Assembly (NCBI GenBank): GCA_037444125.1
Contig: JBBINA010000003.1
Location: 3,167-67,166 of the forward strand
DNA length: 64,000 nucleotides
Direction of reading: 5' to 3'
Origin: a bacterium
Lineage (GTDB): Bacteria > Patescibacteriota > Minisyncoccia > JBBINA01
Made by a program: the position numbers and the translations under genes. The notes below the pieces were generated by a model. That model did no database searches and was not told the origin of the DNA. It worked only from the letters and a program-made list of their open reading frames with translations. This document shows positions 6,621 through 44,422 of this stretch, one piece after another; within the stretch, counting starts at the first letter, position 1, and each line of letters starts with the position of its first letter.

Positions 6621-7693
6621 TTTATCTCGTCTATTTCCTGAATATCAATTTTATAGTCGGTTAATTTTGCGGCCAAACGAACATTCTGGCCATTTTTACC
6701 TATAGCTAAAGATAATTGATCTTTACTAACCTTAACCGTAGCTTTTTTTTCTTTCTCGTCAACCACTACTTCCATAACCTTAGCCGGTGATAAGGCATTC
6801 TGAATAAATTTGACTGGATTTTCGTCCCACTTAATAATATCTATGTTTTCCCATCCAAGCTCATTAAGAATCAAGGAAATTCTTGTTCCCTTCTGACCAA
6901 CACAAGCTCCAATAGGATCAATTTTTGGATCATTAGAAACAACGGCAATTTTTGAACGTGAGCCAGGCTCGCGGGCTAAATTTTTAATCTCAACAATATT
7001 TTGATTAATTTCAGGTATTTCAGTAGCAAATAACTGTTTTAAAAATTCGTCTCGACGTCTGGTTAAATAAAGTGTAACTCCCTTAGGTTCAGTTTTTACT
7101 TCGTAAAGCAATGCTCTTATGCGCTGGCCTACTTTTAATTCTTCGCCTTCCATCAATTCAGTCGGAAAAATAACTCCAGTAGTTTTTCCGATTTCAAGAT
7201 AAACAATTCCTTTTTCAATACGCTGAACACGCGAATAAAAAATTTCATTCTCTCGGCCTTTATACTCTTTAAACAAGTATTCTTTCTCCATTTCTTTAAT
7301 TCTCTGCACTAAAACCTGCCTTGCTGTCTGGCTAGCTATACGACCAAAATCTAATTCCAAAGGTAAATCAAATTCCAAAACATCTCCCTCTTTAACATCT
7401 GACTTAATTTTCTGGGCCTCGCTAAGACTTATTTCTTTTTTGGGATTCAAGTCTTTGCTATCATCAGCACGAACCAACTTTTCTTCATAAATTCGTTTTA
7501 CAGCATAATCGTCAGAAAACTCTATTTTTATTTTATGTCCCTGCAAATTGCGCTCCTTCTTATAGGCACCAGCTATAGCTTCACCAAGAGCTTCAACGAT
7601 TATATTTTTAGGTAAATCTTTTTCTTCGGCAATCTGGCTAAGAAGCGTATTAATGAGCCGTATATCTAAATTCATCATCAGAACATATAACAA
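6617..7693 (-). CDS. nusA: transcription termination/antitermination factor NusA
   Basis: 358 aa: NusA N-terminal domain, S1 domain and two KH domains (GACVGQKGTRISLILNELGWENIDII; IGKNGQNVRLAAKLTDYKIDI). Confidence 0.85.
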   Translation of the reverse strand: MLYVLMMNLDIRLINTLLSQIAEEKDLPKNIIVEALGEAIAGAYKKERNLQGHKIKIEFSDDYAVKRIYEEKLVRADDSKDLNPKKEISLSEAQKIKSDVKEGDVLEFDLPLELDFGRIASQTARQVLVQRIKEMEKEYLFKEYKGRENEIFYSRVQRIEKGIVYLEIGKTTGVIFPTELMEGEELKVGQRIRALLYEVKTEPKGVTLYLTRRRDEFLKQLFATEIPEINQNIVEIKNLAREPGSRSKIAVVSNDPKIDPIGACVGQKGTRISLILNELGWENIDIIKWDENPVKFIQNALSPAKVMEVVVDEKEKKATVKVSKDQLSLAIGKNGQNVRLAAKLTDYKIDIQEIDEIK

Positions 7694-11116: not shown

Positions 11117-11659
11117 ATGGATCTTTTTATAAAGCCAGACAAGTTCATAAAAAATCTTGCTTATATTAAACCATCTTTTAATGTAGCTGATTTTGGCTGC
11201 GGATCAGGCTATTTTACTCTAGAAATTGCCAAAAAAATCGGTCAAATTTCTAAAGTTTATGCCATAGACATACTTAAAGAACCTCTGATTAATTTAAAAA
11301 GGAAAGCTGAAATGCTTGGCATATTTAATATTAAATTTGTTCTGTCTGATTTAGAAAAAATTGGCGGCTCTCTTTTGGACAACGAATCTGTCAATTGCGT
11401 ATTCGTTGCTAATATTCTTTTCCAGGTAAAACATAAAAATAATTTAATTAATGAAGCAATAAGAATTATCCAAAAAAACGGCTATTTAATTTTACTTGAA
11501 TACGAAAATTCTTTCGCGCAATTCGGGCCGCCAAAAACACAACGGATACCCAAAAAACTCTTACTGGAACTTCTAAATGACTCAGGTATGAAACTCATCG
11601 AAGACTTCAAACCAAGCGAAAGTCATTATTGCCTTGTTTATGAGAAAACGATACAATGA
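11117..11659 (+). CDS. class I SAM-dependent methyltransferase
   Basis: 180 aa with motif I VADFGCGSGYFTLEIA and downstream motifs typical of the Rossmann-fold MTase family. Confidence 0.6.
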   Translation: MDLFIKPDKFIKNLAYIKPSFNVADFGCGSGYFTLEIAKKIGQISKVYAIDILKEPLINLKRKAEMLGIFNIKFVLSDLEKIGGSLLDNESVNCVFVANILFQVKHKNNLINEAIRIIQKNGYLILLEYENSFAQFGPPKTQRIPKKLLLELLNDSGMKLIEDFKPSESHYCLVYEKTIQ

Positions 11660-12966
11660 TGTTCTTACAACCTAAATCAATACGACTTATTGTCATAATA
11701 TTTATATGCTTATTATTGGTTACTTTTGTTTTGTTATGGTTTAGCTCCAAAAAAAAAGAACCAGTCCTACCAGTACAACTATACTTTTGGGGTGTTTTTG
11801 ATGATTCAGATATTTACGAAGATTTTATAAGAGAGTTTAGATTAAAACATCCTGATGTAAGTATCGAATACAAGAAATTTGACTATCTTGAATATGAAAG
11901 CGAGCTGCTAGATGCACTCAATAAGAAAATTGGTCCTGACATATTTTTTATCCATAACGCTGGCCTTTGGCGGTATATGAACTTTATATCTCCGGCTCCT
12001 CGTAATCTTATATCATCGGATTATGTACAAAAAAATTACGCGCCGGTAGTAACTAAAGATTTTGTAAGGGATAACGAAGTATATTCTTTGCCTTTATATG
12101 TTTCCACGCCAGCTCTTTTTTATAATAAAAAGCTCTTTACTAAAAATTTTATCGTCAGTCCTCCATACACATGGGAGGAATTTATCAAACAAACCGAAGT
12201 TTTAAAAAGAATAGACGAAAATGGCAACATACTTACCGCTGGCGCAGCCATGGGAACGGCTCAGAATATCAACCGGGCAGTGGACATATTGTATCTTTTA
12301 ATGCTGCAGTCTGGAACAATATTTTATGCTGATAATGGACGAGCTGTTTTTGCCCAAGATATTATTATTGATAACAAAACTTTCAATCCGGCTGAACAAG
12401 CGTTAAAGTTTTACACTGATTTTGCTAATCCTAAAAAAAAGGTATACACTTACAATAATACCCTTGATTACTCTATTGACCTTTTTACTAAAGACCGTTT
12501 AGGCATGATGTTTAACTATAACTGGCATATCAGAACTATTAGGACAAAAAACCCCCTGCTTGACTTTGGAATAGCTCCTATTCCACAACCAAAAGTTTCA
12601 AAAAACCAAAAAGCCTTTGCTAACTATTGGTCCTTGGTAGTGAATAAAAATTCAGCGTTTAAAAATATTGCTTGGGAATTCATCAGTTTTTTAAGTCAAC
12701 CGGAAAATCTTAAACGTTACCTTCAAAAAACATCCAATCCCACTCCTCGTAAAGACCTAATTTCTTGGCAAATTGAAAATATGCCGGAACTAGCTGTTTT
12801 TGCTTCGCAAATTATTATTGCCGACTCTTTTCCCCGCTACGATGATGTTGCATACGAAAAAGTTTTTAATAAAATGATAGATGATGTTGTCTATGAATAC
12901 TATAGTCCAAAAACAGCACTACAAAATGCCCAAAACGAAATAAATAAAATAATAATAAGTAGATAA
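11656..12966 (+). CDS. extracellular solute-binding protein (ABC-transporter family-1 SBP-like), membrane anchored
   Basis: 436 aa. N-terminal TM, then LYFWGVFDDSDIYEDFIREFRLKHPDVSIEYKKFDY...GPDIFFIHNAGLW, which is typical of sugar-type SBPs. No permease or ATPase genes are adjacent. Confidence 0.55.
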   Translation: MMFLQPKSIRLIVIIFICLLLVTFVLLWFSSKKKEPVLPVQLYFWGVFDDSDIYEDFIREFRLKHPDVSIEYKKFDYLEYESELLDALNKKIGPDIFFIHNAGLWRYMNFISPAPRNLISSDYVQKNYAPVVTKDFVRDNEVYSLPLYVSTPALFYNKKLFTKNFIVSPPYTWEEFIKQTEVLKRIDENGNILTAGAAMGTAQNINRAVDILYLLMLQSGTIFYADNGRAVFAQDIIIDNKTFNPAEQALKFYTDFANPKKKVYTYNNTLDYSIDLFTKDRLGMMFNYNWHIRTIRTKNPLLDFGIAPIPQPKVSKNQKAFANYWSLVVNKNSAFKNIAWEFISFLSQPENLKRYLQKTSNPTPRKDLISWQIENMPELAVFASQIIIADSFPRYDDVAYEKVFNKMIDDVVYEYYSPKTALQNAQNEINKIIISR

Positions 12967-12981
12967 ATCCTATAAAATACG

Positions 12982-13986
12982 GTGCAAAACAACTATAAAA
13001 TTATAAAAATATCGCAACTCAAAAAGTTTTTATGGTTTTTTTTCTTCTATATTATTATATTGTCACTACCTAAAATAGGTAAAGCGCAACTTAGCTTAAA
13101 CTGCACAGGTAGTTGCATCAAAGGTAGTGATTGTTCAATTTCTTTATCATTTACTTGTCCTGCAGGTATTCCACCTGGCACTAACTGTTTAGTAACAGGC
13201 AATATGCCACCAATCGGATCAAATGCTCAATGTGGGGCAGGCGGAATAGGAAGCGGCACAGTTATGTTCAGCGGCAGCAGTTATCCTGCCTCGGGACAAT
13301 TCGAAGTAAACCTAACATGCCTTGGCAGACATGATAACTGCGCTATCCCTATCCAAAGTACACCAGGCAACAATAATAATAGCATATGTGAACCCGGCGA
13401 ATCTGGCCTACCTGACTGTGACGGCAACTGTGATCCAACAACTGAATGCGATTCATCTGACTGCGCCGACAACGCTCTTTGCAATTCTGGTGGGTGCAGT
13501 GCTGATGGTAATTGTAATACCGGTTGCGCAGGGGCAGGATTTGCTGATCCTGACTGTACAATGCTGCCATCTGACTTACCACCTGCCGGGCCAAGTGGTA
13601 AGATATGTGCCGGGGTGCCCCCACCACCATCAAATCCAAAACTATGCGAAAACATAGTTCGTTGCGGCGGCTGTTGGGAACCACCCTGCAATCTATGTCA
13701 CATCTTTGAAACCATCAGCAATATTATAAATTGCATCTTGAGATTAGCGTTCCTTATAGGCGCAGTCTTAATTGTCTTTGGAGGTATGTTAATTCTTCTT
13801 TCAGGTTTTTATCCAAATCTTCGCCAACAAGGCAAAACAATTTTTACAGCTGTTATTTACGGCCTAATTATTGCTATGTTATCTTATATCATTGTTTTTA
13901 CTATTGTTTCGCTTTTTGCCCAAAATATGGCCGACTTCAGTTTCTCAGCCAGTGGCTTTAGTTTTACCTGCCAAGCTTATCAATAA
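12982..13986 (+). CDS. cysteine-rich secreted protein with a C-terminal two-helix pilin-like module (putative adhesin/minor pilin)
   Basis: 334 aa. Signal peptide, then roughly 220 aa rich in Cys (about 27), Gly and Pro with CxxxC/CxGxC spacing. The C-terminal segment IINCILRLAFLIGAVLIVFGGMLILLSGFYPNLRQQGKTIFTAVIYGLIIAMLSYIIVF aligns with the conserved module of the five downstream small proteins. Local GC is above 50% against a background near 30%. Confidence 0.6.
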   Translation: MQNNYKIIKISQLKKFLWFFFFYIIILSLPKIGKAQLSLNCTGSCIKGSDCSISLSFTCPAGIPPGTNCLVTGNMPPIGSNAQCGAGGIGSGTVMFSGSSYPASGQFEVNLTCLGRHDNCAIPIQSTPGNNNNSICEPGESGLPDCDGNCDPTTECDSSDCADNALCNSGGCSADGNCNTGCAGAGFADPDCTMLPSDLPPAGPSGKICAGVPPPPSNPKLCENIVRCGGCWEPPCNLCHIFETISNIINCILRLAFLIGAVLIVFGGMLILLSGFYPNLRQQGKTIFTAVIYGLIIAMLSYIIVFTIVSLFAQNMADFSFSASGFSFTCQAYQ

Positions 13987-13995
13987 AATAAATCT

Positions 13996-14370
13996 TTGAA
14001 GCGAAGAAAAAACATAATCCCAAAACTTATATACTACATAATAGCGTTAATAACAGTTTTGCCTACAACAGCAACAGCGCAACCAACAGACTGTCTTGGC
14101 GGATGTCCCTTACCGCAGTATAGCATTTTTGACAGCATTGAAAGTTTTTTAGATAAAGTAGCCTGGTTTGTTGCTTCAGTGGCTTTTCCGATCGCCGGCA
14201 TTGCTCTAATCTGGGCAGGCATCAAGTTTCTTTTGGCCAGAGGCGACGAAATGCAACTAAGGGAAGCTAAAGAAAATCTCAGATGGGCAATAATAGGGAC
14301 ATTCATTGCTCTAGGTGCCTATGTTTTCGTTAACACTATCAAAAAAGTCATTGAAACCTTTGCGCCGTAA
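13996..14370 (+). CDS. VirB2/TrbC-like pilin-family small secreted protein (paralog 1)
   Basis: 124 aa (TTG start). Signal peptide, a Cys pair (DCLGGCP), hydrophobic helix, loop AGIKFLLARGDEMQLREAKENLRWAIIG, then a second hydrophobic helix. Confidence 0.6.
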   Translation: MKRRKNIIPKLIYYIIALITVLPTTATAQPTDCLGGCPLPQYSIFDSIESFLDKVAWFVASVAFPIAGIALIWAGIKFLLARGDEMQLREAKENLRWAIIGTFIALGAYVFVNTIKKVIETFAP

Positions 14371-14397
14371 ATAAAATTAAATTAAATATTAAATTAA

Positions 14398-14775
14398 ATG
14401 AAAAAACTAATACTGAAATTAACAATAGTAACAACAAGCGTCTTTGTCTTCTTTTTTTGTGTTAGTCCAACGGTTCTTACACAAAATCTCATCACTAATG
14501 TGATTGATATTACATCTCCAACAGGTCAAAGAACCATTATTGAAATCCTTAAAGAGGTTTTAAATTGGATAGTTTTATTAGGTCTACCAATTACTGGAGC
14601 CTTTCTGATTCTTGCCGGCATCAAGTTTTTAACTGCTCACGGAGACGAAAGCCAAATTCGCGATGCCAAACGAATGTTAGTCTATACAATCGTCGGTGGA
14701 GCCATAGTTTTAGCCGCCTTTATTATTGTCAACACAATACGGGAAATTCTAATTAGAAAAGGGCTATTCATTTAA
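14398..14775 (+). CDS. VirB2/TrbC-like pilin-family small secreted protein (paralog 2)
   Basis: 125 aa with the same architecture. Loop is LAGIKFLTAHGDESQIRDAKRMLVYTIVG. Confidence 0.6.
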   Translation: MKKLILKLTIVTTSVFVFFFCVSPTVLTQNLITNVIDITSPTGQRTIIEILKEVLNWIVLLGLPITGAFLILAGIKFLTAHGDESQIRDAKRMLVYTIVGGAIVLAAFIIVNTIREILIRKGLFI

Positions 14776-14798
14776 TAATTTTAGGCTAAAATAATATT

Positions 14799-15206
14799 AT
14801 GCTGAAAAAATTTTTTACAATACTAACGGTAATTTTTCTCTTATTGAATATAATACTCTTTGCCCTGCGTTCTTATGCCTTTGACGCTAATATTTTGGTA
14901 AATCCGCCTAACCAGCTTAATAATATGTATCCCTCCAATCAAATGCAGGCAGGAGAAATTCTTGAATTTATCATTGCCATCAGGAATTTTATTTTATTTC
15001 TCGGTGTGGCACTTTTTATAATTTTTGTGGTTATTGCCGGCATTAAATATATGGGCTCCGGTGGAGACGAGGCTAAAATAGAAGAAGCCAGAAAAAATCT
15101 TATATACGCCATTGTGGGTGGCATTATAACTTTCAGCGCTTTTATCATAATGCAGGCAATTATAAGCTTCATTAAACAATCAATTGATTTTAATTCTCTA
15201 TTCTAA
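14799..15206 (+). CDS. VirB2/TrbC-like pilin-family small secreted protein (paralog 3)
   Basis: 135 aa with the same architecture. Loop is IAGIKYMGSGGDEAKIEEARKNLIYAIVG. Confidence 0.6.
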   Translation: MLKKFFTILTVIFLLLNIILFALRSYAFDANILVNPPNQLNNMYPSNQMQAGEILEFIIAIRNFILFLGVALFIIFVVIAGIKYMGSGGDEAKIEEARKNLIYAIVGGIITFSAFIIMQAIISFIKQSIDFNSLF

Positions 15207-15217
15207 CAAAAACTATA

Positions 15218-15245
15218 TTGACATCTGGTTTACAATCCCTAAAAT
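15218..15245 (+). promoter_or_regulatory. Near-consensus sigma-70 promoter TTGACA-N16-TAAAAT inside the pilin array, upstream of paralog 4
   Basis: -35 TTGACA at 15218-15223 and -10 TAAAAT at 15240-15245. A strong SD AAGGGGGTG sits 8 nt before the ATG at 15332. Confidence 0.45.
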
Positions 15246-15331
15246 AAAAGTTAAGCTAATAAAAAACAGTTAGCAAAGATTAAATATATTAAATAAATAA
15301 AAATATTTAAGAGAAAGGGGGTGAAAAAATA

Positions 15332-15769
15332 ATGATAACCAAACTAAGTTTAAATGCTAAAAAACTTGTGGGTTTAATGTTTTTAGGACTTATGGTAGTA
15401 GGAGCGCTGGCTGGATTTTATGGCAACACGGACGCCCAGTGGAACCCAAACTATATAGGTTGGCCCGGCAATACTCTCAATAACTTTTATCCAACTACTT
15501 CGGTGGACGTGGCAGATATACTAATGATGATTATCGGTATAAGAAACTTTATCTTATTCTTAGGCATAGTGCTTGGTATTATATTCTTAGTATTAGGAGG
15601 GATAAACTATATGAGATCCGGAGGTGATGAGGCTAAAATGGCAACAGCCAGGGCGCAAATTATAGGTGGCATCATTGGTCTCGCTGTGGCAGTAGCCGCA
15701 TTCGTTTTATTGTCCGCCATAGTTGATTTTGTGGAAAAATCAGGGCAAGGAATAACAGAATTACAATAA
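15332..15769 (+). CDS. VirB2/TrbC-like pilin-family small secreted protein (paralog 4), a candidate major subunit
   Basis: 145 aa with the same architecture. Loop is LGGINYMRSGGDEAKMATARAQIIGGIIG. It is the only array member with its own consensus promoter, a strong SD and an immediate terminator. Confidence 0.6.
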   Translation: MITKLSLNAKKLVGLMFLGLMVVGALAGFYGNTDAQWNPNYIGWPGNTLNNFYPTTSVDVADILMMIIGIRNFILFLGIVLGIIFLVLGGINYMRSGGDEAKMATARAQIIGGIIGLAVAVAAFVLLSAIVDFVEKSGQGITELQ

Positions 15770-15788
15770 AAATAATATAAAAATAAAA

Positions 15789-15826
15789 AGAGAGGGTAAG
15801 GGTTTCGCACCTCTCTTTTTATTTTT
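15789..15826 (+). terminator. Rho-independent terminator after pilin paralog 4
   Basis: Hairpin AGAGAGG...CCTCTCT (7-bp stem) followed by TTTTTATTTTTT. Confidence 0.55.
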
Positions 15827-15860
15827 TATAAAATTATAAAAAATAATCTCACTAAATAGC

Positions 15861-15888
15861 TTGAAAACAGAAAATTAAAAAATATAAT
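15861..15888 (+). promoter_or_regulatory. Sigma-70-like promoter TTGAAA-N16-TATAAT ending 6 nt before the start codon of paralog 5 (a leaderless mRNA is predicted)
   Basis: -35 at 15861-15866 and -10 at 15883-15888, with the ATG at 15895. There is no room for a Shine-Dalgarno. Confidence 0.4.
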
Positions 15889-15894
15889 TAAATT

Positions 15895-16257
15895 ATGGAA
15901 AACCTACTGGATTTAATAATAACTAAAATCGTTTTTGCGCAAGCTGGAAACGTCCTCTGCCCCAGCGGCGTAGCTAACGGCCTTGTGCCATGCGATCCCT
16001 GGGCACCAGAAGATATCCTTATTTTCTTTATTTCTGTCAGAGATTTTCTGCTGGCCGTAGGTTTAGTTTTAATAATTATTTTTTTGGTTTTAAGCGGGAT
16101 AAAATTTTTAACTTCCCGAGGCAACGAAAGTCAGGTTGAAGAAGCGCGGAAAATGCTTATTTGGTCAATTGTCGGTGCGATTGTCTTAATCGGTGCTTTT
16201 GTTATCCTGCAAATGATAATTGGGATCCTACGGGATAAAGGGTTCAAAATATTCTAA
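15895..16257 (+). CDS. VirB2/TrbC-like pilin-family small secreted protein (paralog 5)
   Basis: 120 aa. Signal peptide, Cys pair (CPSGVANGLVPCDP), then the module LSGIKFLTSRGNESQVEEARKMLIWSIVG between two hydrophobic helices. Confidence 0.6.
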   Translation: MENLLDLIITKIVFAQAGNVLCPSGVANGLVPCDPWAPEDILIFFISVRDFLLAVGLVLIIIFLVLSGIKFLTSRGNESQVEEARKMLIWSIVGAIVLIGAFVILQMIIGILRDKGFKIF

Positions 16258-16262
16258 ATATT

Positions 16263-17888
16263 CTAAAGACGATACACAGTAATTTCTTCAAAATAAGAAT
16301 CTTCGTATACTTTTTTTAATTCCGGACTTTGTCTAATCAAATAATCAAAATTGTAATTTTTTTGAATTTTTTTTAAATTATACCTATCAACGACTAAAAA
16401 CTTAGCGTTAAATTCTTCTTTTAAAAGCTTATACAGGGCGTTATCGCTTTTATCGTAGCAAGCAAGCTTTTCGCCGCATTTTGACGCATATCTATCACAA
16501 ATCGCGCCTAGCCTTATCAAATTATCATAGTAGAAAAACTTTCTCGGATTATAGGGCAATATTGAATTACCATTAAGACCAACGACATAGTAATTATGAG
16601 TATTGTAATAAAAAAAGTAAGGGAAGATATCCCAACGGTCTAAAAAAACAAGATCACCGGGTTCCGAATTGTGCTTTAAAAACATAGCCGCGCCATAAAA
16701 CCGGGACAACGAAAAAGCTTGCCTATCAAAATGTCTTGCTTCACTTAACCATATTAACAAAACAATCGATAAGGTAAACGCCGCTACTATAATTACTGAC
16801 AAATAATACAGGGAGCGTCTTATCAACAACCTTGACTCTCTATTTAACAAACGATTAAAAAGTCTAAAATTTATATTTTCAGGCAAAAAAATATGAAAAC
16901 AAGCCACAAGAAAAAGAAAAATCAAGGGAACGCTATATTCAACAAATCGCTGAGACAAGAAAGTTAAAAACACAAAAAAAACTGAGCTTAGCCATAGAAA
17001 AAACCATTGAGAACACTGGCGATTTTTCTTTTGTTGGATTTCCTGATATAAAAAAAAGAAGCCAAAGCTTAAAATCACCAGATAACCAATCAAAATATAA
17101 AATAGATGCCTATCACTAAAGTAGGGAGAAGTCCACTCAATACTAACAGGAAAAGCAAAATTAATGATTGGGTTGGTATAAATCGCCTGCGAATTTAAAA
17201 TATTATTTGGAAAATATGGATTAAGAATTATACCCCACACTATACCAGAAATAACGCACAAAAACGGCTTTAAATCAAGCGCTTTATCAACAATTAACCG
17301 ACTTAAGAAATATAAAAAAGCAAGTATTACTAAAATTACATAACCATCATAAGCCCAGACAAAGAAAAAGCTGGTCATAAAAAGAAACCAATTTCTTCTA
17401 AGTAAAAGCGCATAAAGCCCGGTTAAAAAAAACAGAACAGCAAAAGCAATAGCTCTAACATTTTGAAACCTACTCATAAAATACGAAGCAAGCGGAAACA
17501 AAAAAAATAGTAAAAAAAATATAAAATGATGATCTCTTCGAATATGTTTAATAATAAGATATAAAATGCCCAAAATAAACCCAACTACAAGGGACTGTAG
17601 AAGTTTAGTGCCGTTTAAATCACCAAAAACTTTAACAAACGGGATAAGCACTACTGACCACAGAAAGTGTATACCCGGAAAATCCTTGCGCCAGCTAGTA
17701 TGATAAAGCCAAGGCATTTCTTTTATAAATCCTTTATCAGCATATATATGAGACATAGCAATGTAAAAATAACTGTCATTATCATTAATTTCATAAATAA
17801 TCTGAAATCCCAAAAACCAAACTAGCGAAACAAGCAGAAAGACAAACAAAAAACCGTGTTTTTTTATTCTTTGGCTTACAAAAGTCAT
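16263..17888 (-). CDS. polytopic membrane protein, putative GT-C-fold glycosyltransferase (ArnT/PMT-like)
   Basis: 541 aa and more than 10 predicted TM helices. Acidic first-loop motif INDNDSYFYIAMSHIY and a shared VWAYDGY motif. It is a paralog of the next gene. Confidence 0.45.
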   Translation of the reverse strand: MTFVSQRIKKHGFLFVFLLVSLVWFLGFQIIYEINDNDSYFYIAMSHIYADKGFIKEMPWLYHTSWRKDFPGIHFLWSVVLIPFVKVFGDLNGTKLLQSLVVGFILGILYLIIKHIRRDHHFIFFLLFFLFPLASYFMSRFQNVRAIAFAVLFFLTGLYALLLRRNWFLFMTSFFFVWAYDGYVILVILAFLYFLSRLIVDKALDLKPFLCVISGIVWGIILNPYFPNNILNSQAIYTNPIINFAFPVSIEWTSPYFSDRHLFYILIGYLVILSFGFFFLYQEIQQKKNRQCSQWFFLWLSSVFFVFLTFLSQRFVEYSVPLIFLFLVACFHIFLPENINFRLFNRLLNRESRLLIRRSLYYLSVIIVAAFTLSIVLLIWLSEARHFDRQAFSLSRFYGAAMFLKHNSEPGDLVFLDRWDIFPYFFYYNTHNYYVVGLNGNSILPYNPRKFFYYDNLIRLGAICDRYASKCGEKLACYDKSDNALYKLLKEEFNAKFLVVDRYNLKKIQKNYNFDYLIRQSPELKKVYEDSYFEEITVYRL

Positions 17889-19444
17889 TAAATTAAAACT
17901 TTAAAAAGATAGACCCCCTTGTTGTAACCAAAACCTTCATATATTTTGCCAAAATAAGGCGAGCGATTCAAAACATTAAATACATTAAATATGGGACGAT
18001 AAATATCTTCACCCCAAAACAAATCAATAAAAACAACCTTAGAACCAAAAATTTCTTTTATTGCTTTGGCGTATTTTTTATCTAGATAATAGTCACAGTA
18101 TTTAATTTCTTTTAAACATCGCTCTTCTTCGCAATAAATCATACCTCTATTGATTATTTCATAAATAAAATCCCTTTGTGGGTCGTATGTTTTCATAAAC
18201 TGCCGACCAAGGCCTGCCACATAATAATTATAATCATTAGCGTAAAATAAAGTCGGAAAAGACGACCAGTTTATATTAAAAATAATTTCTCCTTTAACTG
18301 TATGCTGCTTTAGAAATTGGCTTACGGCTTCGTATCTTGAAATTTTGGGTTGGCTGACAAAATATGAATTTAACTCTTTGAAATTAAATAAAAAACTTAA
18401 AACTAAATATGCGCTCCCAGCAAAAACAAAAACTTTTTTTTGTTTAAGAGGAAAATTCTTTAATTCAACTAATAATTTTTTATAAAAGGAGGCAAAAAAA
18501 ATTAAAGCAAATGGCAAAAGATAATCAATAAAACGCGCAAAAAAGAGATAAAAAACTGAAAAAATCAAGAAAACATATAATTGAAAATTGTTATAAAGCC
18601 TATTATTTTTCTGGCGTAAAAACGCCCAAAATGCCAAAATCAAAGCAAGCAAAAAATAAGCCACAATGCTTTCATGACCCCAGGGCCAAAATTCTATCCT
18701 CGGCGGAAGCCACTCTACACTAAGTGGCATATATAAAGCCTTAATTGGATTAACAATCGTAATATGCATAAACAAAATATTATTCGGAAAAAACGGGTTA
18801 ATAATTAATCCCCATAATATTCCGGATAGGCTATATAGGAAAGGCTTAAAATTCAACTTTCGCCCGCTGATAAAATTATAAATGCTCCAAAGGATCACTA
18901 AAACAAGCGATAAAAAATAACCATCATAAGCCCAGACAAAGAAAAAATTAACCAACCACAGCCAAAGATGTTTTTCTTTTAACAAAAAATAAAAAACCAG
19001 CAATAAGAAAAGCAATGAAAAAGTCAACGGCCTTATATTTAGCATTCGCCACAAGAAAGGTGTAGGCGCAGCATATAATATAAAAACAAAAAAACTTGCC
19101 GTTTTATTATTTAACTTAAAAAGATTTCGAAAAATAAAAAAAAGAGAAAAACTACTTAAAGCAAGAATAAGAGACTGATATATTTTAGCAGCCAAAAGAT
19201 CGTTTTCTATAAACCTGACAAACGGAAACATTAAAAACCAATAAAGAAAATGGTGCCCAGTAAAATTCTCTCGATAAATCGAATAATAGAGCCAAGGCAA
19301 TTTTTGAAAAAACCCGCCTTCACTAAATAATTGGGCAAGTTTAATATAAAAATAATTATCATCAAATGCCGCCAAAACAGGATAAAGACTAAGTAATAAT
19401 ACGCTAAAACTGAAGGAAACGGCAAAAACCCAAAAATAAATCAT
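17888..19444 (-). CDS. polytopic membrane protein, putative GT-C-fold glycosyltransferase (paralog of 16263-17888)
   Basis: 518 aa. First-loop motif AAFDDNYFYIKLAQLF (DD/DE-type as in ArnT/PMT) and the shared VWAYDGY motif. Confidence 0.45.
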   Translation of the reverse strand: MIYFWVFAVSFSFSVLLLSLYPVLAAFDDNYFYIKLAQLFSEGGFFQKLPWLYYSIYRENFTGHHFLYWFLMFPFVRFIENDLLAAKIYQSLILALSSFSLFFIFRNLFKLNNKTASFFVFILYAAPTPFLWRMLNIRPLTFSLLFLLLVFYFLLKEKHLWLWLVNFFFVWAYDGYFLSLVLVILWSIYNFISGRKLNFKPFLYSLSGILWGLIINPFFPNNILFMHITIVNPIKALYMPLSVEWLPPRIEFWPWGHESIVAYFLLALILAFWAFLRQKNNRLYNNFQLYVFLIFSVFYLFFARFIDYLLPFALIFFASFYKKLLVELKNFPLKQKKVFVFAGSAYLVLSFLFNFKELNSYFVSQPKISRYEAVSQFLKQHTVKGEIIFNINWSSFPTLFYANDYNYYVAGLGRQFMKTYDPQRDFIYEIINRGMIYCEEERCLKEIKYCDYYLDKKYAKAIKEIFGSKVVFIDLFWGEDIYRPIFNVFNVLNRSPYFGKIYEGFGYNKGVYLFKVLI

Positions 19445-20127
19445 CTAATTCCCAAAAAGTATAAATATAGTCTAGCTAGATGCATAAGATATCTTAAAAA
19501 TTCCCTTGTGTTTAATTTTGACGAGCCACGCTTACGATTCTTAAATACATACGGCACCTCGTCATATTTTTTATATTTACCCTTGACTAAAATTTCAATT
19601 AATATTTTATAGCCTATTGGGCTCAGTTTGATTCCCTCGATAACCGAGCGTCGTATAACGAAAAATCCAGACATAGGATCAGTACACTTACCAACTAAAG
19701 GTCTTGCCATAATCTCGCCCAGACGAGAAACTAATCTACGATGAAAAGGCCAGTCTTCAACTCTGCCACCAGCCTTTCGCCGTGTACCTACAACTAAATC
19801 GCATCCCTCCTTCTCAATCCTTGCCAAAAATTTGGGCAAAAATTCCGGCGGGTGACTCAAATCGCCATCCATAATGACAATAATCTTTCCTTGTGATTTT
19901 TTGAAACCATAAATAACCGAGTTCGAAAGATCGTATGAAACCTGATAAAATTTAACTGGATATATACGGGTTAACTTTTGGACGATACTTTTTGTGTTAT
20001 CAGCAGAAAACTTATCAATAATCAAAATTTCATAAGACTTTCCTCTTAAGGTCCTATCTAGACGTTTTATTAATTCTTTTAAATTCCTACCTTCATTTAA
20101 GGTTGGTACAACAATTGATAAACTCAT
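19441..20127 (-). CDS. GT2-family glycosyltransferase, polyprenyl-phosphate sugar synthase (Dpm1/GtrB-like)
   Basis: 228 aa: LSIVVPTLNEGRNL...IIDKFSADNT...VIMDGDLSHPPEF, i.e. DxD plus the GT-A fold. No C-terminal TM. Confidence 0.7.
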   Translation of the reverse strand: MSLSIVVPTLNEGRNLKELIKRLDRTLRGKSYEILIIDKFSADNTKSIVQKLTRIYPVKFYQVSYDLSNSVIYGFKKSQGKIIVIMDGDLSHPPEFLPKFLARIEKEGCDLVVGTRRKAGGRVEDWPFHRRLVSRLGEIMARPLVGKCTDPMSGFFVIRRSVIEGIKLSPIGYKILIEILVKGKYKKYDEVPYVFKNRKRGSSKLNTREFLRYLMHLARLYLYFLGIR

Positions 20128-21416
20128 GATGCCGTCCTTAAATTTCCTTTAAAAATATAAGCAATAATTATAATCTGAACTATATAGTAAAAATGGTTAA
20201 GATGGAAATAGCGGGAAAAAAATAAGAAAGTAAAAGTTAGTAAAGCATAAACCATCAAAAAAGCACTTAATGATCTCTCCCTTTGTAAATAAATATAGCC
20301 TACTATAAAAATAGGTAAACCAAACAATAACTGCAATATCCAGAACGGAAAATAAGCAAAAATGTCTTTTACAAAACCAAAATAATATAAATAAGAAGCA
20401 AATCCTATTCCCCTAACTCCACCTAAAGGATATGGCGATAACGAAGTTCCGCTGCCATAATTCCAAATGTCATCAATAAAATCACCTGCCGAAAAAATAA
20501 AGAACGGAAAAATTACCACGCCCGCAACCACTAACGCAGGCATTAGTTCGTATAAACTTCGACGAAATAATAACATTAAGTTTGCTCCACCCTTTTTCCA
20601 ATCTCTAAAACGATACAAAAAATACAATGGCAATAAAAGCCAAGTAGTCTGCTTGCTAGCATACAAAAAACTCATAAAAATAGAGGATAAAATTGTTTTT
20701 CTTCTAATTAAAAAATATAGGAAAAACAGCAATAATGCAATAATTATTACATCATTATATCCATAAATTAAACCGTTTAAAAAAAACGGATTGGCGAATA
20801 AAATCAACCCTACCATCTTTCTCGGGTTATCAATGGTAACATTATTTAAAATTAGCATCGATAATATAAAAGCTATCACATGAATTAATCTAAAATCAAA
20901 CCAACTAAAAAGCCAATAACTCAATAAATAAAATGGAACAGAGATAACTAAAAAAAATGGAAGATATATATAATGATATAGTGCTGGATTTTCTATTATT
21001 TGACCATTAAGCAAAGGTCCTATATAGCCATAGTTCCAACTTGCCAATTCGGTATCTAAATAGTTCTCTCGATATGGATTTTTGTTTTTCAACAAAAAAG
21101 AAACCGCAGCTTCGGTTTGAATTACGCTATCATGGGTATAACGTAATTCTCCCTTTACTCTTAAAAATAAATTTATAACTAGGATTGGTAAAAAAAGAAC
21201 TACTAATATTATCCCCAATAATATTTTTTTAAAAAAATATGAATTTATGTTGAGGCGGTATGAAATAAACACATAACCTAAAAAAAACAACAATGCTAAT
21301 GTTGTTAATCCAAATATTATTAGCTGACCACGCAAACTTCCAAAATATAGGCTCAGATACCTTTCGGTTGTAAAAAAATATGCAAAAAAGTATGCAACTA
21401 GTAGTAATATATCCAT
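20124..21416 (-). CDS. polytopic membrane protein, putative GT-C-like glycosyltransferase (GT87/DUF2029-like)
   Basis: 430 aa, about 11 TM helices, aromatic-rich loops. Family assignment is tentative. Confidence 0.35.
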   Translation of the reverse strand: MDILLLVAYFFAYFFTTERYLSLYFGSLRGQLIIFGLTTLALLFFLGYVFISYRLNINSYFFKKILLGIILVVLFLPILVINLFLRVKGELRYTHDSVIQTEAAVSFLLKNKNPYRENYLDTELASWNYGYIGPLLNGQIIENPALYHYIYLPFFLVISVPFYLLSYWLFSWFDFRLIHVIAFILSMLILNNVTIDNPRKMVGLILFANPFFLNGLIYGYNDVIIIALLLFFLYFLIRRKTILSSIFMSFLYASKQTTWLLLPLYFLYRFRDWKKGGANLMLLFRRSLYELMPALVVAGVVIFPFFIFSAGDFIDDIWNYGSGTSLSPYPLGGVRGIGFASYLYYFGFVKDIFAYFPFWILQLLFGLPIFIVGYIYLQRERSLSAFLMVYALLTFTFLFFSRYFHLNHFYYIVQIIIIAYIFKGNLRTAS

Positions 21417-21426
21417 ATAATATTAC

Positions 21427-22155
21427 TCACTTTAAAAATCTAAACTTTAAAAGCGTATAAACCGCTTTGAAACCCTGATACCACCTTAACTTCTTTCCCT
21501 CCTGAAAACCTCTGGGCAGATAACTAATAGGTACTTCTGTAATTTTTATTCCTTTTCTTAATATTTTTGCTGTAATTTCCTCGCAAAACTCAAAACCGTT
21601 ATGCTCTAAAGTAATATTGGCCAAAACCTTCCTTCTAAATACTTTATAACCGGTACTAATGTCACTTAAATAACTTCGGTATAAGATATTTCCAGCCAAA
21701 GTCACTAAACGTCCTCCATAATAATAAAATGGTGTAAATTTAGGATTCCGAATATTCAATATCCTTGAACCATATACAACTTCACTTTTACCTTCTAAAA
21801 TTGGCTTAAGCAAAAAAGGATAATCTTTAGGATTGTATTCAAGATCGGCATCCTGAATAATCACTATATCACCCGTTGCCATACTCAAACCAGTTCTAAT
21901 CGCTGCCCCCTTACCTTGGTTTTTAAGATGTCTCTTAACCTTAATAATAAAATAAGGATTAATTGGCAAACTGCGAATATATTTATTCAAATAAAAATAG
22001 GTGCCGTCTGTAGAACAATCGTCAATTACGATAATTTCTTTTGCTATATCATAAAGTGAAACCTTTATAACTCTATCTAACACTAATCTAATGGTTTTAC
22101 GCTCGTTAAAACAAGGAATGATGATAGATAACTTAATAAGTTTATTGCTGGACAT
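21427..22155 (-). CDS. GT2-family glycosyltransferase (Dpm1-like)
   Basis: 242 aa: LSIIIPCFNERKTI...VIDDCSTDGT...QDADLEYNPKDYP. Confidence 0.7.
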   Translation of the reverse strand: MSSNKLIKLSIIIPCFNERKTIRLVLDRVIKVSLYDIAKEIIVIDDCSTDGTYFYLNKYIRSLPINPYFIIKVKRHLKNQGKGAAIRTGLSMATGDIVIIQDADLEYNPKDYPFLLKPILEGKSEVVYGSRILNIRNPKFTPFYYYGGRLVTLAGNILYRSYLSDISTGYKVFRRKVLANITLEHNGFEFCEEITAKILRKGIKITEVPISYLPRGFQEGKKLRWYQGFKAVYTLLKFRFLK

Positions 22156-23503
22156 AGTTGTAAAAATATTTTTCCTTTATAGTTTTAAGAAGTTTAAAAA
22201 TTAATATGGCTGGCAAAATTATATAAAAAACAGTAAAACCTACAGAATTAAACATTGGATAGGCAATGAGGGCGGTTATAGTAAGTAGAAACAGCTCATC
22301 GCTCTTTTGCAAAAAAATCAAAAAGGGAACAAGCCATAGAGAATCCCATTGCCTAACATTAATCTGAAATAAAATTATAAACATAACTAACGCAAGCAAT
22401 CCCTTCATCAAGAATGTCTTTTTGCTGTTTATTAGATTTATAAGATAACCAATAAAAAACAATGGTCTAAAAATAAAACGCGACAAGTAAGAAACTATAA
22501 AAAATAAAGTTAGTCTATCCTTAATTGTCTCTACAAATGGTATATAGAATATATTAGCGTAAGGCAATAAAAATATTTGGGATTGGAGAAATAAGCTTTT
22601 AAATGTTGTCCTTCCTGCCCAAATATCTTTATAGGCGAAGTAAACAATTAAAAACCCCAGTAACAAATTAACCAACAAAAATTGTATCTTACGCGCTAAG
22701 GTTTTTATTTTTTTAACAAGCTCGACCAAAGCAATTGGCACTAATAAAAAATATACATACTTAACTAGCCCTGAAACTATCAACAAAGGTATTACCAAAT
22801 ATCTTTTCCGATAAACAAAAAAGTAAATTCCCAAAATACCAAAAAATATCATCAGGTAATCGTTATGGGCATTATTAATAAATTCAATTAATATCCAAGG
22901 ATTAAATGCATATAGATAAGTTGCTTGAATCTCGCAGCCGGGCGCCAACTTTTTAACAACTAAATAAACTAACACTACGCTCAAGGTATTTATTAAGAAA
23001 GCGAACATTTTAAACACTATCATTGTGTATTGCGGAAATGAAGCAGACGATTTAGTCAGAAAATGCCCCACCCAGTACCACACTGGCCCATAATGATTCT
23101 CTTGGTTCCTCCACTCGCTCTGCTTAGTAAACATATCATCTGGATATTGAAATGGTGCAACTTTATAAGAATTTTCGTGGTATATCGAGCTTAACCTGCC
23201 CAAAGCAATAACTCTATAAACATCATTGGAAAAAAAAGGCGGTATAAAAACTAAAATTAAAGAGACCAGACAATAAGTCATTGCCAGCTTTGTTTTGTTT
23301 TTTTTAAGAAACTCGGCTCTGTAATAATAAACAATATAGATTACGACAATAAAAATTACAATTGCTAATAACTGCCAAACCCTAAAGTTATCATCAAAAA
23401 TATATACAGGCACCTTTAAACTTACGCGTGAATAACCAAAGTAGTAAAAACCGAGCATAAAGCAAAAACCAATATAAGATAAAACAAAAACAAACAATAG
23501 CAT
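22142..23503 (-). CDS. polytopic membrane protein, putative GT-C-like glycosyltransferase
   Basis: 453 aa with many TM helices. It sits inside the glycosylation island. Confidence 0.35.
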   Translation of the reverse strand: MLLFVFVLSYIGFCFMLGFYYFGYSRVSLKVPVYIFDDNFRVWQLLAIVIFIVVIYIVYYYRAEFLKKNKTKLAMTYCLVSLILVFIPPFFSNDVYRVIALGRLSSIYHENSYKVAPFQYPDDMFTKQSEWRNQENHYGPVWYWVGHFLTKSSASFPQYTMIVFKMFAFLINTLSVVLVYLVVKKLAPGCEIQATYLYAFNPWILIEFINNAHNDYLMIFFGILGIYFFVYRKRYLVIPLLIVSGLVKYVYFLLVPIALVELVKKIKTLARKIQFLLVNLLLGFLIVYFAYKDIWAGRTTFKSLFLQSQIFLLPYANIFYIPFVETIKDRLTLFFIVSYLSRFIFRPLFFIGYLINLINSKKTFLMKGLLALVMFIILFQINVRQWDSLWLVPFLIFLQKSDELFLLTITALIAYPMFNSVGFTVFYIILPAILIFKLLKTIKEKYFYNYVQQ

Positions 23504-37456: not shown

Positions 37457-37487
37457 GATTTTATAAATTAACTTCGTATTAATAATT

Positions 37488-39077
37488 ATGGCTGAACAAA
37501 TAACAATAATCGGGGCAACTGACTTTCGCGGCCAAAAAATAAAGTTCGGTATAAAAAAAGATGACCGTCGTCGCCATTTATATATTATTGGAAAAACTGG
37601 TATGGGTAAAACAACACTTCTTGAAAACCTGGCTATTCAAGATATACAAAATGGCAACGGTCTATGCGTGGTTGATCCGCACGGCGAATTCGCTGATAAA
37701 CTCCTTGATTATGTGCCAGCTAATCGCATAAAAGATGTCGTCTATTTTAATCCTTCAGACACTAATTACCCTATTGGCTTCAATGTTATGTCGACTGAGA
37801 ATCAAGAAGAGCGTTATCTTATCGCTTCGGGCTTAATGGGGGTTTTTAAAAAGATATGGCCTGATGTTTGGTCGCCACGAATGGAATATATTCTCAATAA
37901 TACTATTTTATCTTTATTGGAAATGCCCGGTATGACGCTATTAGGCATTAATAGAATGCTGGGCGAAACCGATTATCGAAAACAAATAATCCAACGTTTA
38001 AAAGATCCAGTGGTTAAAACCTTCTGGGTTAATGAATTTGCCAAATACTCGCCATCGTTCCAAACAGAAGCCGTAGCCGCTATCCAAAATAAGGCTGGAC
38101 AATTTATCACTAATCCTCTGGTGCGAAATATTGTCGGTCAAATGGAGAATAAAATTAACATGCGTGAAATAATGGACGGCCAAAAAATTTTAATTGTCAA
38201 TCTCTCTAAGGGAAAAATTGGCGAAGACAACTCCAGTCTTCTGGGCGGTATGATTATTACAAAACTACAACTAGCTGCTATGTCGCGAGTCGATACTCCA
38301 GAAAATCTGCGCAAAGACTTTTATTTATATGTCGATGAGTTCCAAAATTTCGCCACCGAGTCTTTTATTAATATTTTATCAGAAGCCCGAAAATACCGAC
38401 TTTGCCTAACATTAGCTCATCAATACATCGCCCAACTAACTGATAAGGGCGTCAATAAGAGTACAGGCGTGAGGGATGCTATTTTCGGCAATGTCGGCAC
38501 AATTATTTCCTTCAGGGTAGGAGGCGAAGATGCAGAGTTTTTAGAAAAAGAGTTCTTTCCCGAATTCACCAAATTAGATTTTGTAAATCTGCCAAAATAT
38601 AAAATTTATCTAAGGCTTATGATAGACGGTGTGGTTTCTAGACCATTTTCAGCTGAAACTTTGCCCCCTCTTCCCAAACCAACCAAAACTTACCGCAAAG
38701 AAATTATTGACTTTAGCCGCAAAACCTATGGAGTCGCCCGAGAAACCGTTGATGTATTTGTGGCTGAATGGATGAGTATAGAAAAACTAGATGATGAAAA
38801 AATAGAAAGAGCTTTTAAACAGCATGTTACCAAATTATATGATGCTGTCTGCGCTAATTGCCAGAAAAAAACCAAACTCATTTTTGAACCTCGTCCAAAT
38901 GAACCAGTTTTTTGCCGCAAGTGTTATAAAAATAAAGCCGAATCTAGTACCCGCAAGCCAACACAGCAAGCTAGAAAAAAACCTATACCAAAAACCACAG
39001 AAGAAGATCAATCTAAAACTCTTAAAAATCTTTTGTTAGAAGCTATTAAAATGAAAGGCGAAAAACCTAAACAATAA
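37488..39077 (+). CDS. FtsK/HerA-superfamily P-loop ATPase with a C-terminal zinc ribbon (VirD4/TraD-coupling-protein-like or HerA-like)
   Basis: 529 aa. Walker A IIGKTGMGKTT, a HerA-type VVDPHGEF motif, Walker B LYVDEFQNF, and a C-terminal CANCQ...CRKC zinc ribbon. No TM segment. Confidence 0.55.
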   Translation: MAEQITIIGATDFRGQKIKFGIKKDDRRRHLYIIGKTGMGKTTLLENLAIQDIQNGNGLCVVDPHGEFADKLLDYVPANRIKDVVYFNPSDTNYPIGFNVMSTENQEERYLIASGLMGVFKKIWPDVWSPRMEYILNNTILSLLEMPGMTLLGINRMLGETDYRKQIIQRLKDPVVKTFWVNEFAKYSPSFQTEAVAAIQNKAGQFITNPLVRNIVGQMENKINMREIMDGQKILIVNLSKGKIGEDNSSLLGGMIITKLQLAAMSRVDTPENLRKDFYLYVDEFQNFATESFINILSEARKYRLCLTLAHQYIAQLTDKGVNKSTGVRDAIFGNVGTIISFRVGGEDAEFLEKEFFPEFTKLDFVNLPKYKIYLRLMIDGVVSRPFSAETLPPLPKPTKTYRKEIIDFSRKTYGVARETVDVFVAEWMSIEKLDDEKIERAFKQHVTKLYDAVCANCQKKTKLIFEPRPNEPVFCRKCYKNKAESSTRKPTQQARKKPIPKTTEEDQSKTLKNLLLEAIKMKGEKPKQ

Positions 39078-43657: not shown

Positions 43658-44422
43658 ATGTTACCGCACCAATCAAATGATTATTCAAAGATTGTTTTAG
43701 AAATAAGGCAAGGCGTAGGAGGGGACGAGGCTAGTCTTTTTGTAGTTGATCTAATTCAAGCTTATCGAAAATATGCCGAAAAACACGGTTTAGTTTTTTC
43801 ACTAGAAGACGCAGTGAAAAATAGTTTAGGCGGCATTAAGGAAGCTGTAATCGAAATTTCAGGTAAAAATGCTTTCCAACTTTTTAAATATGAAGGCGGC
43901 GTTCATCGTGTTCAAAGAATACCCCAAACTGAACGCTATGGCAGGATTCATACATCCACTGTTTCAGTAGTTGTCATCCCATATACTGAAAATAAAACGG
44001 GAAATATCTCAATAGACCAACGAGATTTAAAAATAACAACTTTTCGCGCTTCTGGACCTGGCGGGCAATATGTAAACAAAACAGATTCGGCTGTACGCAT
44101 AACTCATATCCCAACTAATATCACTGTCGTTTCTCAAGATGAACGTTCGCAACATAAAAATAGAGAAAAAGCGATGAAAATTTTAAAATTAAAACTTTAT
44201 CTTCTACAACAACATAAGCACCAACAAGAAATAGATTCATTAAGAAGAAATCAGATTAAAACACAGGAAAGGTCTTTTAAAATACGCACTTACAATTATA
44301 AACAGAATCGCATCACTGATCATCGTATCCACAAAAGCTTTCACAATTTACAACACATTTTAAGCGGCAATCTTGATATTATTGTTAAGGAAAACGCAAA
44401 ATACGCCACTGAAAACAAATAA
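43658..44422 (+). CDS. prfA: peptide chain release factor 1 (class I RF, PxT type), lacking the N-terminal domain 1
   Basis: 254 aa with the GGQ motif (SGPGGQYVNKTDSAVRITHIPT) and a PQT tripeptide where RF1 has PAT (RVQRIPQTERYGRIHTS). It begins at the equivalent of E. coli RF1 residue about 103. Confidence 0.75.
   Translation: MLPHQSNDYSKIVLEIRQGVGGDEASLFVVDLIQAYRKYAEKHGLVFSLEDAVKNSLGGIKEAVIEISGKNAFQLFKYEGGVHRVQRIPQTERYGRIHTSTVSVVVIPYTENKTGNISIDQRDLKITTFRASGPGGQYVNKTDSAVRITHIPTNITVVSQDERSQHKNREKAMKILKLKLYLLQQHKHQQEIDSLRRNQIKTQERSFKIRTYNYKQNRITDHRIHKSFHNLQHILSGNLDIIVKENAKYATENK

Follow-up and report, generated by a model that had tools for sequence, protein, structure and literature searches.

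Tandem arrays of small VirB2-like pilins have been described in the ultrasmall bacteria of the candidate phyla radiation (CPR), the Patescibacteria. According to the excerpted texts of the two reports, 441 such arrays of 2-11 genes each occur in Patescibacteria (PMC12102498), and arrays of the VirB2-like kind proved essential to a Saccharibacterium in culture (PMC10633639); as excerpted, the former also gives no PrgB-type adhesin as detected in Patescibacteria (PMC12102498). In the solved pili built from conjugative pilins, the subunits have both termini exposed to solvent and turn their basic loop to the lumen (10.1101/2024.03.04.583355), and VirB5 is a separate soluble protein rather than a pilin fusion (PMC12857230). 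Here, a six-gene array was analysed in a 64,000-nucleotide stretch of DNA (the window) from a bacterium of the patescibacterial lineage JBBINA01 (GenBank assembly GCA_037444125.1, contig JBBINA010000003.1, positions 3,167 to 67,166, forward strand). Gene content and the names of homologues also place the window in the Patescibacteria. With six genes of low mutual identity, the array fits the definition of two to eleven tandem pilins used in PMC12102498. It belongs to the known VirB2-like pilin arrays of Patescibacteria, and its new part is the product of its first gene, the lead pilin, in which a pilin module carries an N-terminal head that varies between lineages. An earlier note, made from the sequence of the window, had proposed this protein as a candidate tip adhesin or minor pilin.

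The lead pilin and its pilin module

The open reading frame (ORF) that the earlier note had placed at 12982-13986, upstream of the pilin array, was found at exactly these coordinates, with both peptides quoted from it. It starts with GTG and is the first gene of the six-gene cluster. The parts of the protein, as predicted, and the array genes are as follows (aa, amino acids; AF2, AlphaFold2; pLDDT, its per-residue confidence).

12982..13986, + strand: lead pilin gene, 334 aa (signal peptide, Cys-rich head, Pro-rich linker and capped VirB2-like pilin module)
12982..13086, + strand: predicted signal peptide, residues 1-35 (K-rich n-region, FLWFFFFYIIILSL core, GKA/Q site)
13087..13386, + strand: head subdomain A, residues 36-135 (8 Cys)
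13387..13557, + strand: head subdomain B, residues 136-192 (10 Cys, with a D/N/G/S-rich stretch)
13558..13644, + strand: Pro/Ser-rich linker as read from the sequence, residues 193-221 (contains C209)
13645..13692, + strand: pilin cap, residues 222-237 (LCENIVRCGGCWEPPC); C239, third of the conserved Cys in the cap, falls at the second position of the helical hairpin part
13693..13926, + strand: helical hairpin from AF2 and PF18895, residues 238-315 (two hydrophobic helices, basic loop NLRQQGK)
13927..13983, + strand: C-terminal tail, residues 316-334 (conserved C330; low pLDDT)
13996..14370, + strand: short pilin 1, 124 aa (PF18895, 48.6 bits; TrbC/VirB2 PF04956, 46.5 bits; both above the gathering score)
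14398..14775, + strand: short pilin 2, 125 aa (PF18895, 44.3 bits)
14799..15206, + strand: short pilin 3, 135 aa (PF18895, 39.6 bits)
15332..15769, + strand: short pilin 4, 145 aa (PF18895, 27.5 bits)
15895..16257, + strand: short pilin 5, 120 aa (PF18895, 33.9 bits)

The pilin module of the lead pilin spans residues 222-334 (113 aa). PF18895 matched the protein at residues 241-305 (E=1.4e-5, 25.5 bits), its orthologues being marked 'weak' for this family in precomputed annotation, and the five short pilins all scored above the PF18895 gathering score. Alignment of the C-terminus with the five paralogs by profile hidden Markov models (HMM-HMM), which the earlier note had called for, was significant (hhalign of three orthologues against the five paralogs, E=1.1e-5, probability 82%, 78 columns). 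A profile of the five paralogs, run against all window ORFs, matched the lead pilin (E=2.9e-7) and no other ORF, including several that encode polytopic membrane proteins; reciprocally, with a profile of the lead pilin's own relatives, all five paralogs scored between E=1e-13 and 7e-17. A generic transmembrane-helix composition as the source of the C-terminal similarity was ruled out by hhalign and the reciprocal profile searches. When 1.84 billion representatives were searched exhaustively with phmmer, 1887 relatives were obtained; apart from P0002, these matched residues ~215-333 only (proteins and loci of the comparison are designated P and L, respectively, followed by a number); nearly all of the listed module-profile relatives were annotated PF18895, and several fused relatives scored above threshold in direct scans. 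By these comparisons, residues 222-334 are a genuine PF18895 (VirB2-like) pilin module, so that the homology to the downstream pilins claimed in the earlier note held, over 113 aa and not over the last ~70 residues. With AF2 (residues 215-334, 111-sequence alignment) the module was modelled as a helical hairpin (pLDDT 81.5) with helices at 238-275 and 278-315, and hydropathy gave hydrophobic segments at 241-280 and 285-317. Against sequences in the PDB, the module profile matched VirB2 (8exh) at E=9.4 only, and no match to the module was obtained by tblastn in 72,556 plasmids; the link from the module to classical VirB2, as drawn from sequence, is through the Pfam families only.

Among relatives, helix 1 is preceded by a cap with the consensus LVPCGG...PxCxLCHxF, accompanied by a C-terminal Cys. 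In 151 relatives, C228 was conserved in 96%, C236 in 100%, C239 in 89% and C330 in 75%; of the other stem Cys, C222 is common to the closest relatives and C231 was present in the lead pilin and P0002 only. The cap is not present in the five downstream pilins. Where the earlier note had seen the same module in all six proteins, the lead pilin module is, by these signatures, a capped PF18895 subfamily distinct from that of its five neighbours, occurring once per array and always first. A disulfide between cap and tail is plausible, because both ends of the hairpin should lie outside the cell.

The protein contains 26 Cys in 334 residues, against a mean Cys content of 0.7% across 50 other window proteins, none of which exceeded 2.0% (chance P ~5e-19 against this background). 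Of these, 24 lie in residues 41-239, with C251 in helix 1 and C330 near the C-terminus; counted by part, 19 are in the head proper (residues 36-215), six in the stem and one (C251) inside helix 1. The Cys richness described in the earlier note was thus borne out, with a count of 26 in place of ~27, only 19 of them in the unique head. The CxxxC/CxGxC-type spacing it described proved to be mixed (CxxxC three times, CxxC twice), with Cys 4-6 residues apart across 146-182 in subdomain B, where every Cys is conserved in P0002.

Two orthologues were available, P0001 (99% identity) and P0002 (~70%; 69% by BLASTP, 73% by alignment), the latter retaining all 26 Cys. Between the lead pilin and P0002, the proportion of synonymous differences (pS) was 0.76 over the whole gene, which is saturated, and that of nonsynonymous differences (pN) 0.17; by part, pS ranged from 0.75 to 0.82 and pN from 0.11 to 0.22 (pilin part 0.11, head 0.19). 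Because all 26 Cys are kept in P0002 while synonymous sites are saturated, the ORF is to be regarded as a real, constrained protein-coding gene. Subdomain A is 66% identical in P0002 (omega ~0.07) and is probably beta-rich, beta strands appearing in the AF2 model at low confidence only.

The N-terminus is of ordinary Sec type, with a hydrophobic segment at residues 15-34 by hydropathy, and a Pfam search for a class III signal peptide or N-methylation motif gave no N_methyl match at E<=1. Cleavage is predicted after Ala35, and the A/Q site is also present in positional orthologues of the lead pilin. The signal peptide with its conserved A/Q site, the Cys kept between orthologues and the basic residues R281 and K285 of the inter-helix loop, which fit an N-out/C-out topology, together place the head outside the cytoplasm, as the earlier note had it, and speak against the cytoplasmic location that the note gave as refuting.

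The six tandem genes occupy 12982-16257. The first four are separated by 9-27 nucleotides (nt), with 9 nt between the lead pilin and short pilin 1, and the other four short pilins are 19-33% identical to short pilin 1. Two 125-nt gaps (15207-15331 and 15770-15894) contain 11/12 sigma-70-like matches (15218-15245 and 15861-15888) before short pilins 4 and 5, respectively; a promoter and terminator scan of the array as a whole gave no excess over the shuffled expectation. In the public gene calls for a near-identical contig (L002, 11053-11325), short pilin 1 is missed and a 90-aa antisense ORF is given in its place.

Variable heads at a conserved position

The gene order UPF0102, hypothetical, GyrA, methyltransferase, solute-binding protein (SBP), lead pilin and 3-6 short pilins was seen in the window, L001, L002, L004/L005, L007, L008/L009, L010, L011 and L012. 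The order from GyrA through methyltransferase, SBP and lead pilin to the array was found in all eight locus types, in which the lead module is kept (identity to the window across loci of 42-82% for GyrA, 38-71% for SBP and 31-81% for the lead module). Every array-containing locus examined had a single capped pilin, which was always the first gene of the array. In the three closest locus types 4-20 nt separate the lead pilin from the next pilin, and the short pilins of the window and L004 are colinear orthologues. Two of the loci, L008 and L009, have as gene 2 of the array (6697-7341 in both) a tandem double pilin of 214 aa, with two PF18895/TrbC modules in one ORF, and GyrA of L011 (978-4049) carries an intein (PF14890), on a contig of 768,753 nt that is possibly a whole genome. 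The heads at the lead position were the following.

Head of 4 aa: P0003, 154 aa in total, from the genome with 82% GyrA identity
Head of 53 aa, 6 Cys: positional orthologue of the lead pilin
Head of 89 aa, 12 Cys: positional orthologue of the lead pilin
Head of 114 aa, no Cys: FN3-like by eye
Head of 142 aa, 4 Cys: positional orthologue of the lead pilin
Heads of 177 aa (P0002) and 181 aa (window lead pilin), 19 Cys
Head of 366 aa: Ig-like-looking repeats

By BLASTP, the heads at this position were mutually non-homologous, the pair from the window and L001 excepted, and every orthologous head ends in a P/S/T-rich linker. Pfam gave no domain on the variable heads beyond PF18895, the FN3-like and Ig-like assignments having been made by eye. 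The window and L002 come from different samples, SRR11582170 being the one that holds the strain near-identical to the window. Over 21,008 nt they are 99.96% identical and differ by five substitutions, of which four fall within the lead pilin gene (L002 10001-11005; binomial P=2.5e-5): F19C, S197P, a synonymous change at V212 and S217P, three of which alter the protein, with both S-to-P changes in the linker. This cluster may reflect either fast evolution of the linker or an assembly error, the numbers being small.

For the head of the window lead pilin, no match was found in Pfam or NCBIfam, nor among PDB sequences at E<=10. EGF, knottin, granulin and similar Cys-rich folds gave no Pfam match to the head at E<=1, and the VirB5 and PrgB families no Pfam or NCBIfam match to the lead pilin at E<=1, where PF18895 and a weak Flp match were the only Pfam matches. 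The head matched none of the 150 best relatives. In the full-length AF2 model, for which three sequences were available, pLDDT was 40 overall and below 50 in the head, which made it unusable for a fold search. The head alone (residues 36-220) gave 0 matches at E<=10 in an index of 5.8 billion proteins, where even the 99% identical P0001 was missed although the full-length query had found it, so that negatives of this word-index search are untrustworthy for Cys-rich, low-complexity queries. Two scans of GTDB genomes and one of JGI metagenomes for the fusion gave no confirmed locus, and the 19-Cys head is known from the window and two other assemblies only. An Ig-like kinship of subdomain A with the heads of P0005 and P0009 was unsupported (hhalign E=0.42). 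At the DNA level, no relevant tandem repeat was present in the lead pilin gene, and none in subdomain B.

The earlier note had also described the coding DNA as above 50% GC, possibly of foreign origin. The former was so in a single 300-nt window (0.507), the head having 48.7% GC overall. Foreign origin was rejected, since GC at third codon positions (GC3) is normal (head 0.344, background 0.308 +/- 0.035) and the amino acid composition fully accounts for the GC content: 48.4% is expected from the head's amino acids with host codon usage. The raised GC is due to the content of Gly, Pro, Ala and Cys. The long alternative-frame ORFs reported at 13281-13691 are present, as expected of a stop-poor, GC-richer stretch; two of the three are shorter in the orthologue.

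Beyond this position, architectures were counted in the best 150 cluster representatives of the 1887 relatives. The pilin module stood by itself in 81, was preceded by an N-terminal extension of >100 aa in 16, followed by a C-terminal extension of >60 aa in 52, and flanked by both in two, giving 70 with extra domains. Cys content is very high in many of the extensions (35 of 424 residues in one example, 89 of 960 in another), and most of the Cys-rich ones had no Pfam match. Recognisable domains fused to the module included some of adhesion type, namely TIG and FN3-like domains as heads and PKD on the C-terminal side, and two kinds of enzyme, papain protease and SLT lytic transglycosylase. P0042 (L006 5658-7274) and P0101 are C-terminal fusions of a capped PF18895-type module to SLT lytic transglycosylases, and in P0060 (L014 3050-6310; 1086 aa, 93 Cys) the module and a Cys-rich region are followed by PKD and papain protease. 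A survey of related genomes, as proposed in the earlier note, thus recovered both pilin-module fusions (70 of the best 150 relatives) and variable heads at the syntenic position, and a head on a VirB2-like stem is, by these counts, frequent in metagenomic data. The statement that the architecture is undescribed stands for the literature searched, which, in the parts of the texts accessible, gives VirB2-like arrays as small divergent pilins, with no head-bearing members found described; it does not stand for the databases, where those 70 relatives carry extensions.

Possible roles of the lead pilin

Our preferred reading, held tentatively and with somewhat less than even confidence, is that the lead pilin is a modular minor pilin showing a swappable adhesin head, a specialised subunit of a filament or filament-like structure that the five short pilins would form. 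A conserved stem, a fixed first position and a replaceable head would make up the pattern of a receptor-binding part, an interpretation that may be right but falls just short of being probable. More doubtful is the full form of the proposal, namely that a CPR clade keeps a fixed slot for a VirB2-type lead pilin whose head is exchangeable, ranging from none through small Cys knots and FN3-like or Ig-like domains to the 19-Cys head of the window; this would be the first modular pilin of a type IV secretion system (T4SS) and would serve, at the tip, as host-specificity adhesin of the essential patescibacterial pilus. The comparison of variable heads strengthens the role of tip adhesin or minor pilin put forward in the earlier note, as something that we infer from sequence. 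What the sequences show is the homology of the module, the export signals, the conservation, the gene position and the variability of the heads; polymerisation, tip location and adhesion of the lead pilin are presumed here.

By this preferred reading, the Sec system would export the lead pilin, the signal peptide would be cut after Ala35, and the two-helix module would span the membrane, its two ends facing outwards and its basic loop inwards. The 180-aa head would fold outside the cell and be locked by disulfides, the Pro-rich linker keeping it clear of the pilin cap. Machinery of the T4SS type would polymerise the short pilins, and the lead pilin would be added rarely or first, leading to a location at the tip; rare or first incorporation is expected because a filament could hardly accommodate 180-aa heads on all of its subunits. 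Since the N-termini of VirB2-type pilins are solvent-exposed, the head would be displayed on the outside of the filament, where it would bind a surface structure of the host bacterium; a C-terminal head, of the kind seen in many relatives, would likewise come to lie outside. Lineages that swap the head and keep the stem would in this way retune specificity.

Several observations weigh against this proposal. A filament of VirB2-like array pilins has not been observed in any Patescibacterium, and polymerisation is speculative (PMC12857230). Pfam scans of the 64-kb window found no VirB4 anywhere in it and no VirB6 near the array, only a gene resembling a T4SS coupling protein (T4CP), 21 kb off. 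The PF18895 score of the lead pilin is 1.1 bits under the Pfam gathering score (25.5 vs 26.6), and in fold searches the module is indistinguishable from helical hairpins in general. No recognisable adhesin fold was found in the head with Pfam or PDB sequences, its pLDDT in the AF2 model being <50. Finally, P0042, P0060 and P0029, the last with a TIG head, are not beside pilin arrays, P0042 adjoining type IV pilus genes (PilM, N_methyl) instead, and in such stand-alone enzyme and TIG fusions the module may be only an anchor, probably so in the enzymes.

These last fusions bear on the main alternative, in which the lead pilin itself is a pilin-derived membrane anchor, its two-helix module tethering the head to the cytoplasmic membrane of a monoderm cell and never entering a filament; the protein would then act at the cell surface as adhesin, receptor or structural component. 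We regard this as unlikely, if worth serious consideration: the module is fused to SLT domains (P0042, P0101), to papain protease and PKD (P0060) and to a TIG head (P0029), and none of the three whose context was examined lies beside an array; 52 of the best 150 relatives have C-terminal extensions, often of several hundred residues, for which a filament would have little room; and no T4SS core genes flank the array. In the clade of the window, however, the gene always opens a colinear array of pilins, with 4-20 nt to the following pilin gene in the three closest locus types, and the orthologue P0003, at 154 aa practically headless, has nothing to display. The Cys cap and C-terminal Cys, moreover, are features of the stem that are common to hundreds of short pilin-only relatives, which does not favour an anchor.

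The headless orthologue bears equally on a second alternative, in which the capped lead pilin nucleates or caps a polymer of short pilins as an assembly primer or terminator, in the manner of the minor pilins of type IV filaments, and the head is a lineage-specific decoration with no binding role. That P0003 keeps both position and cap implies a conserved function in the stem, and each array has a single capped pilin, always first; yet purifying selection acts strongly on the head, whose Cys are all kept at ~70% identity, and most lineages replace their heads and do not lose them, which makes this explanation improbable in its full form. A role of the stem as primer would be compatible with either the adhesin or the anchor reading, the primer and adhesin roles not being exclusive. 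Least probable by far is a released Cys-rich effector or antimicrobial-like peptide, cut at the Pro-rich linker with the pilin part as export carrier, for although disulfide-rich small domains are typical of secreted toxins and the small Cys-rich head of the orthologue P0034 weakly matched a myticin precursor (E=9e-4), that match was sub-threshold (19.8 bits, cut-off 28.5) and included the signal peptide, no protease site or processing enzyme was evident, and other heads at the position are FN3-like or Ig-like by eye and not toxin-like.

Neighbouring genes and relation to known systems

Two further entries of the window were noted in connection with the array.

11117..12966, + strand: methyltransferase and SBP, assigned by Pfam; SBP ends 15 nt before the lead pilin
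37488..39077, + strand: T4CP-like ATPase (TrwB_AAD_bind, TraG-D_C and zf_Tbcl_2, a C-terminal treble-clef zinc finger), 21 kb from the array

The T4CP-like ATPase is possible machinery for the array, the link being uncertain; besides the pilins, it and an SLT-domain protein (45178-46683) were the T4SS-related Pfam finds in the window. A 469-aa ORF with no Pfam match precedes the ATPase, the two together spanning 36047-39077 (+ strand). Directly after the array lies a glycosyltransferase cluster (16263-23503, - strand), with polytopic paralogs of 541 and 518 aa that have no Pfam match, followed by GT2, GT87, GT2 and an MptA_B-like gene; the 541-aa protein and a GT2 likewise come after the array in L004. 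Elsewhere in the window, a release-factor-like ORF of 254 aa (43658-44422, + strand), in which positions 91-194 of the PCRF model start at residue 1, has ~90 N-terminal positions missing, with a small L31-like ORF just upstream and no CTTTGAC frameshift site, and a 587-aa protein with PKD and two Lamin Tail Domains (61279-63042, - strand) is a probable surface protein.

Little is known of how ultrasmall CPR bacteria recognise and hold their host cells, and the lead pilin is a concrete candidate for a host-binding part. In the excerpted reports, the only species open to genetic work cannot do without its VirB2-like arrays, to which no function has been assigned, and no T4SS adhesin had been found in the phylum (PMC10633639, PMC12102498). 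If filaments are confirmed, the lead pilin would also add a natural surface-display scaffold.

As excerpted in the same two reports (PMC10633639, PMC12102498), the described patescibacterial arrays resemble that of the window in consisting of tandem, sequence-divergent small pilins in a CPR-type genome; they differ in lying beside virB4, where the window array is in a GyrA-methyltransferase-SBP neighbourhood, and in having small pilins only, a two-class array not being mentioned in the excerpts. With the VirB2/TrbC/TraA pilins (PF04956, PF18895), the lead pilin shares a signal peptide, a two-helix hydrophobic hairpin and a basic loop; unlike them, it has a 180-aa disulfide-rich head and a Pro-rich linker between signal peptide and module. 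VirB2 and TrbC undergo head-to-tail peptide cyclisation; the lead pilin instead carries a Cys cap, together with a C-terminal Cys. The VirB5/TraC tip proteins and PrgB adhesins have the role proposed here, that of contacting the target cell at or near the surface of the pilus or the cell, and no sequence relation to the lead pilin. The closest parallel in design is offered by PilB and PilC of Streptococcus sanguinis (PMC8179133, PMC9934059), adhesive minor subunits in which a pilin module is likewise grafted to a functional module; these have a type IV pilus fold and machinery, a class III signal peptide and a C-terminal functional module, so that the likeness is one of analogy and not of homology. 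Should filaments be confirmed, the principle of the modular pilin would extend from type IV pili to conjugation-type pilins.

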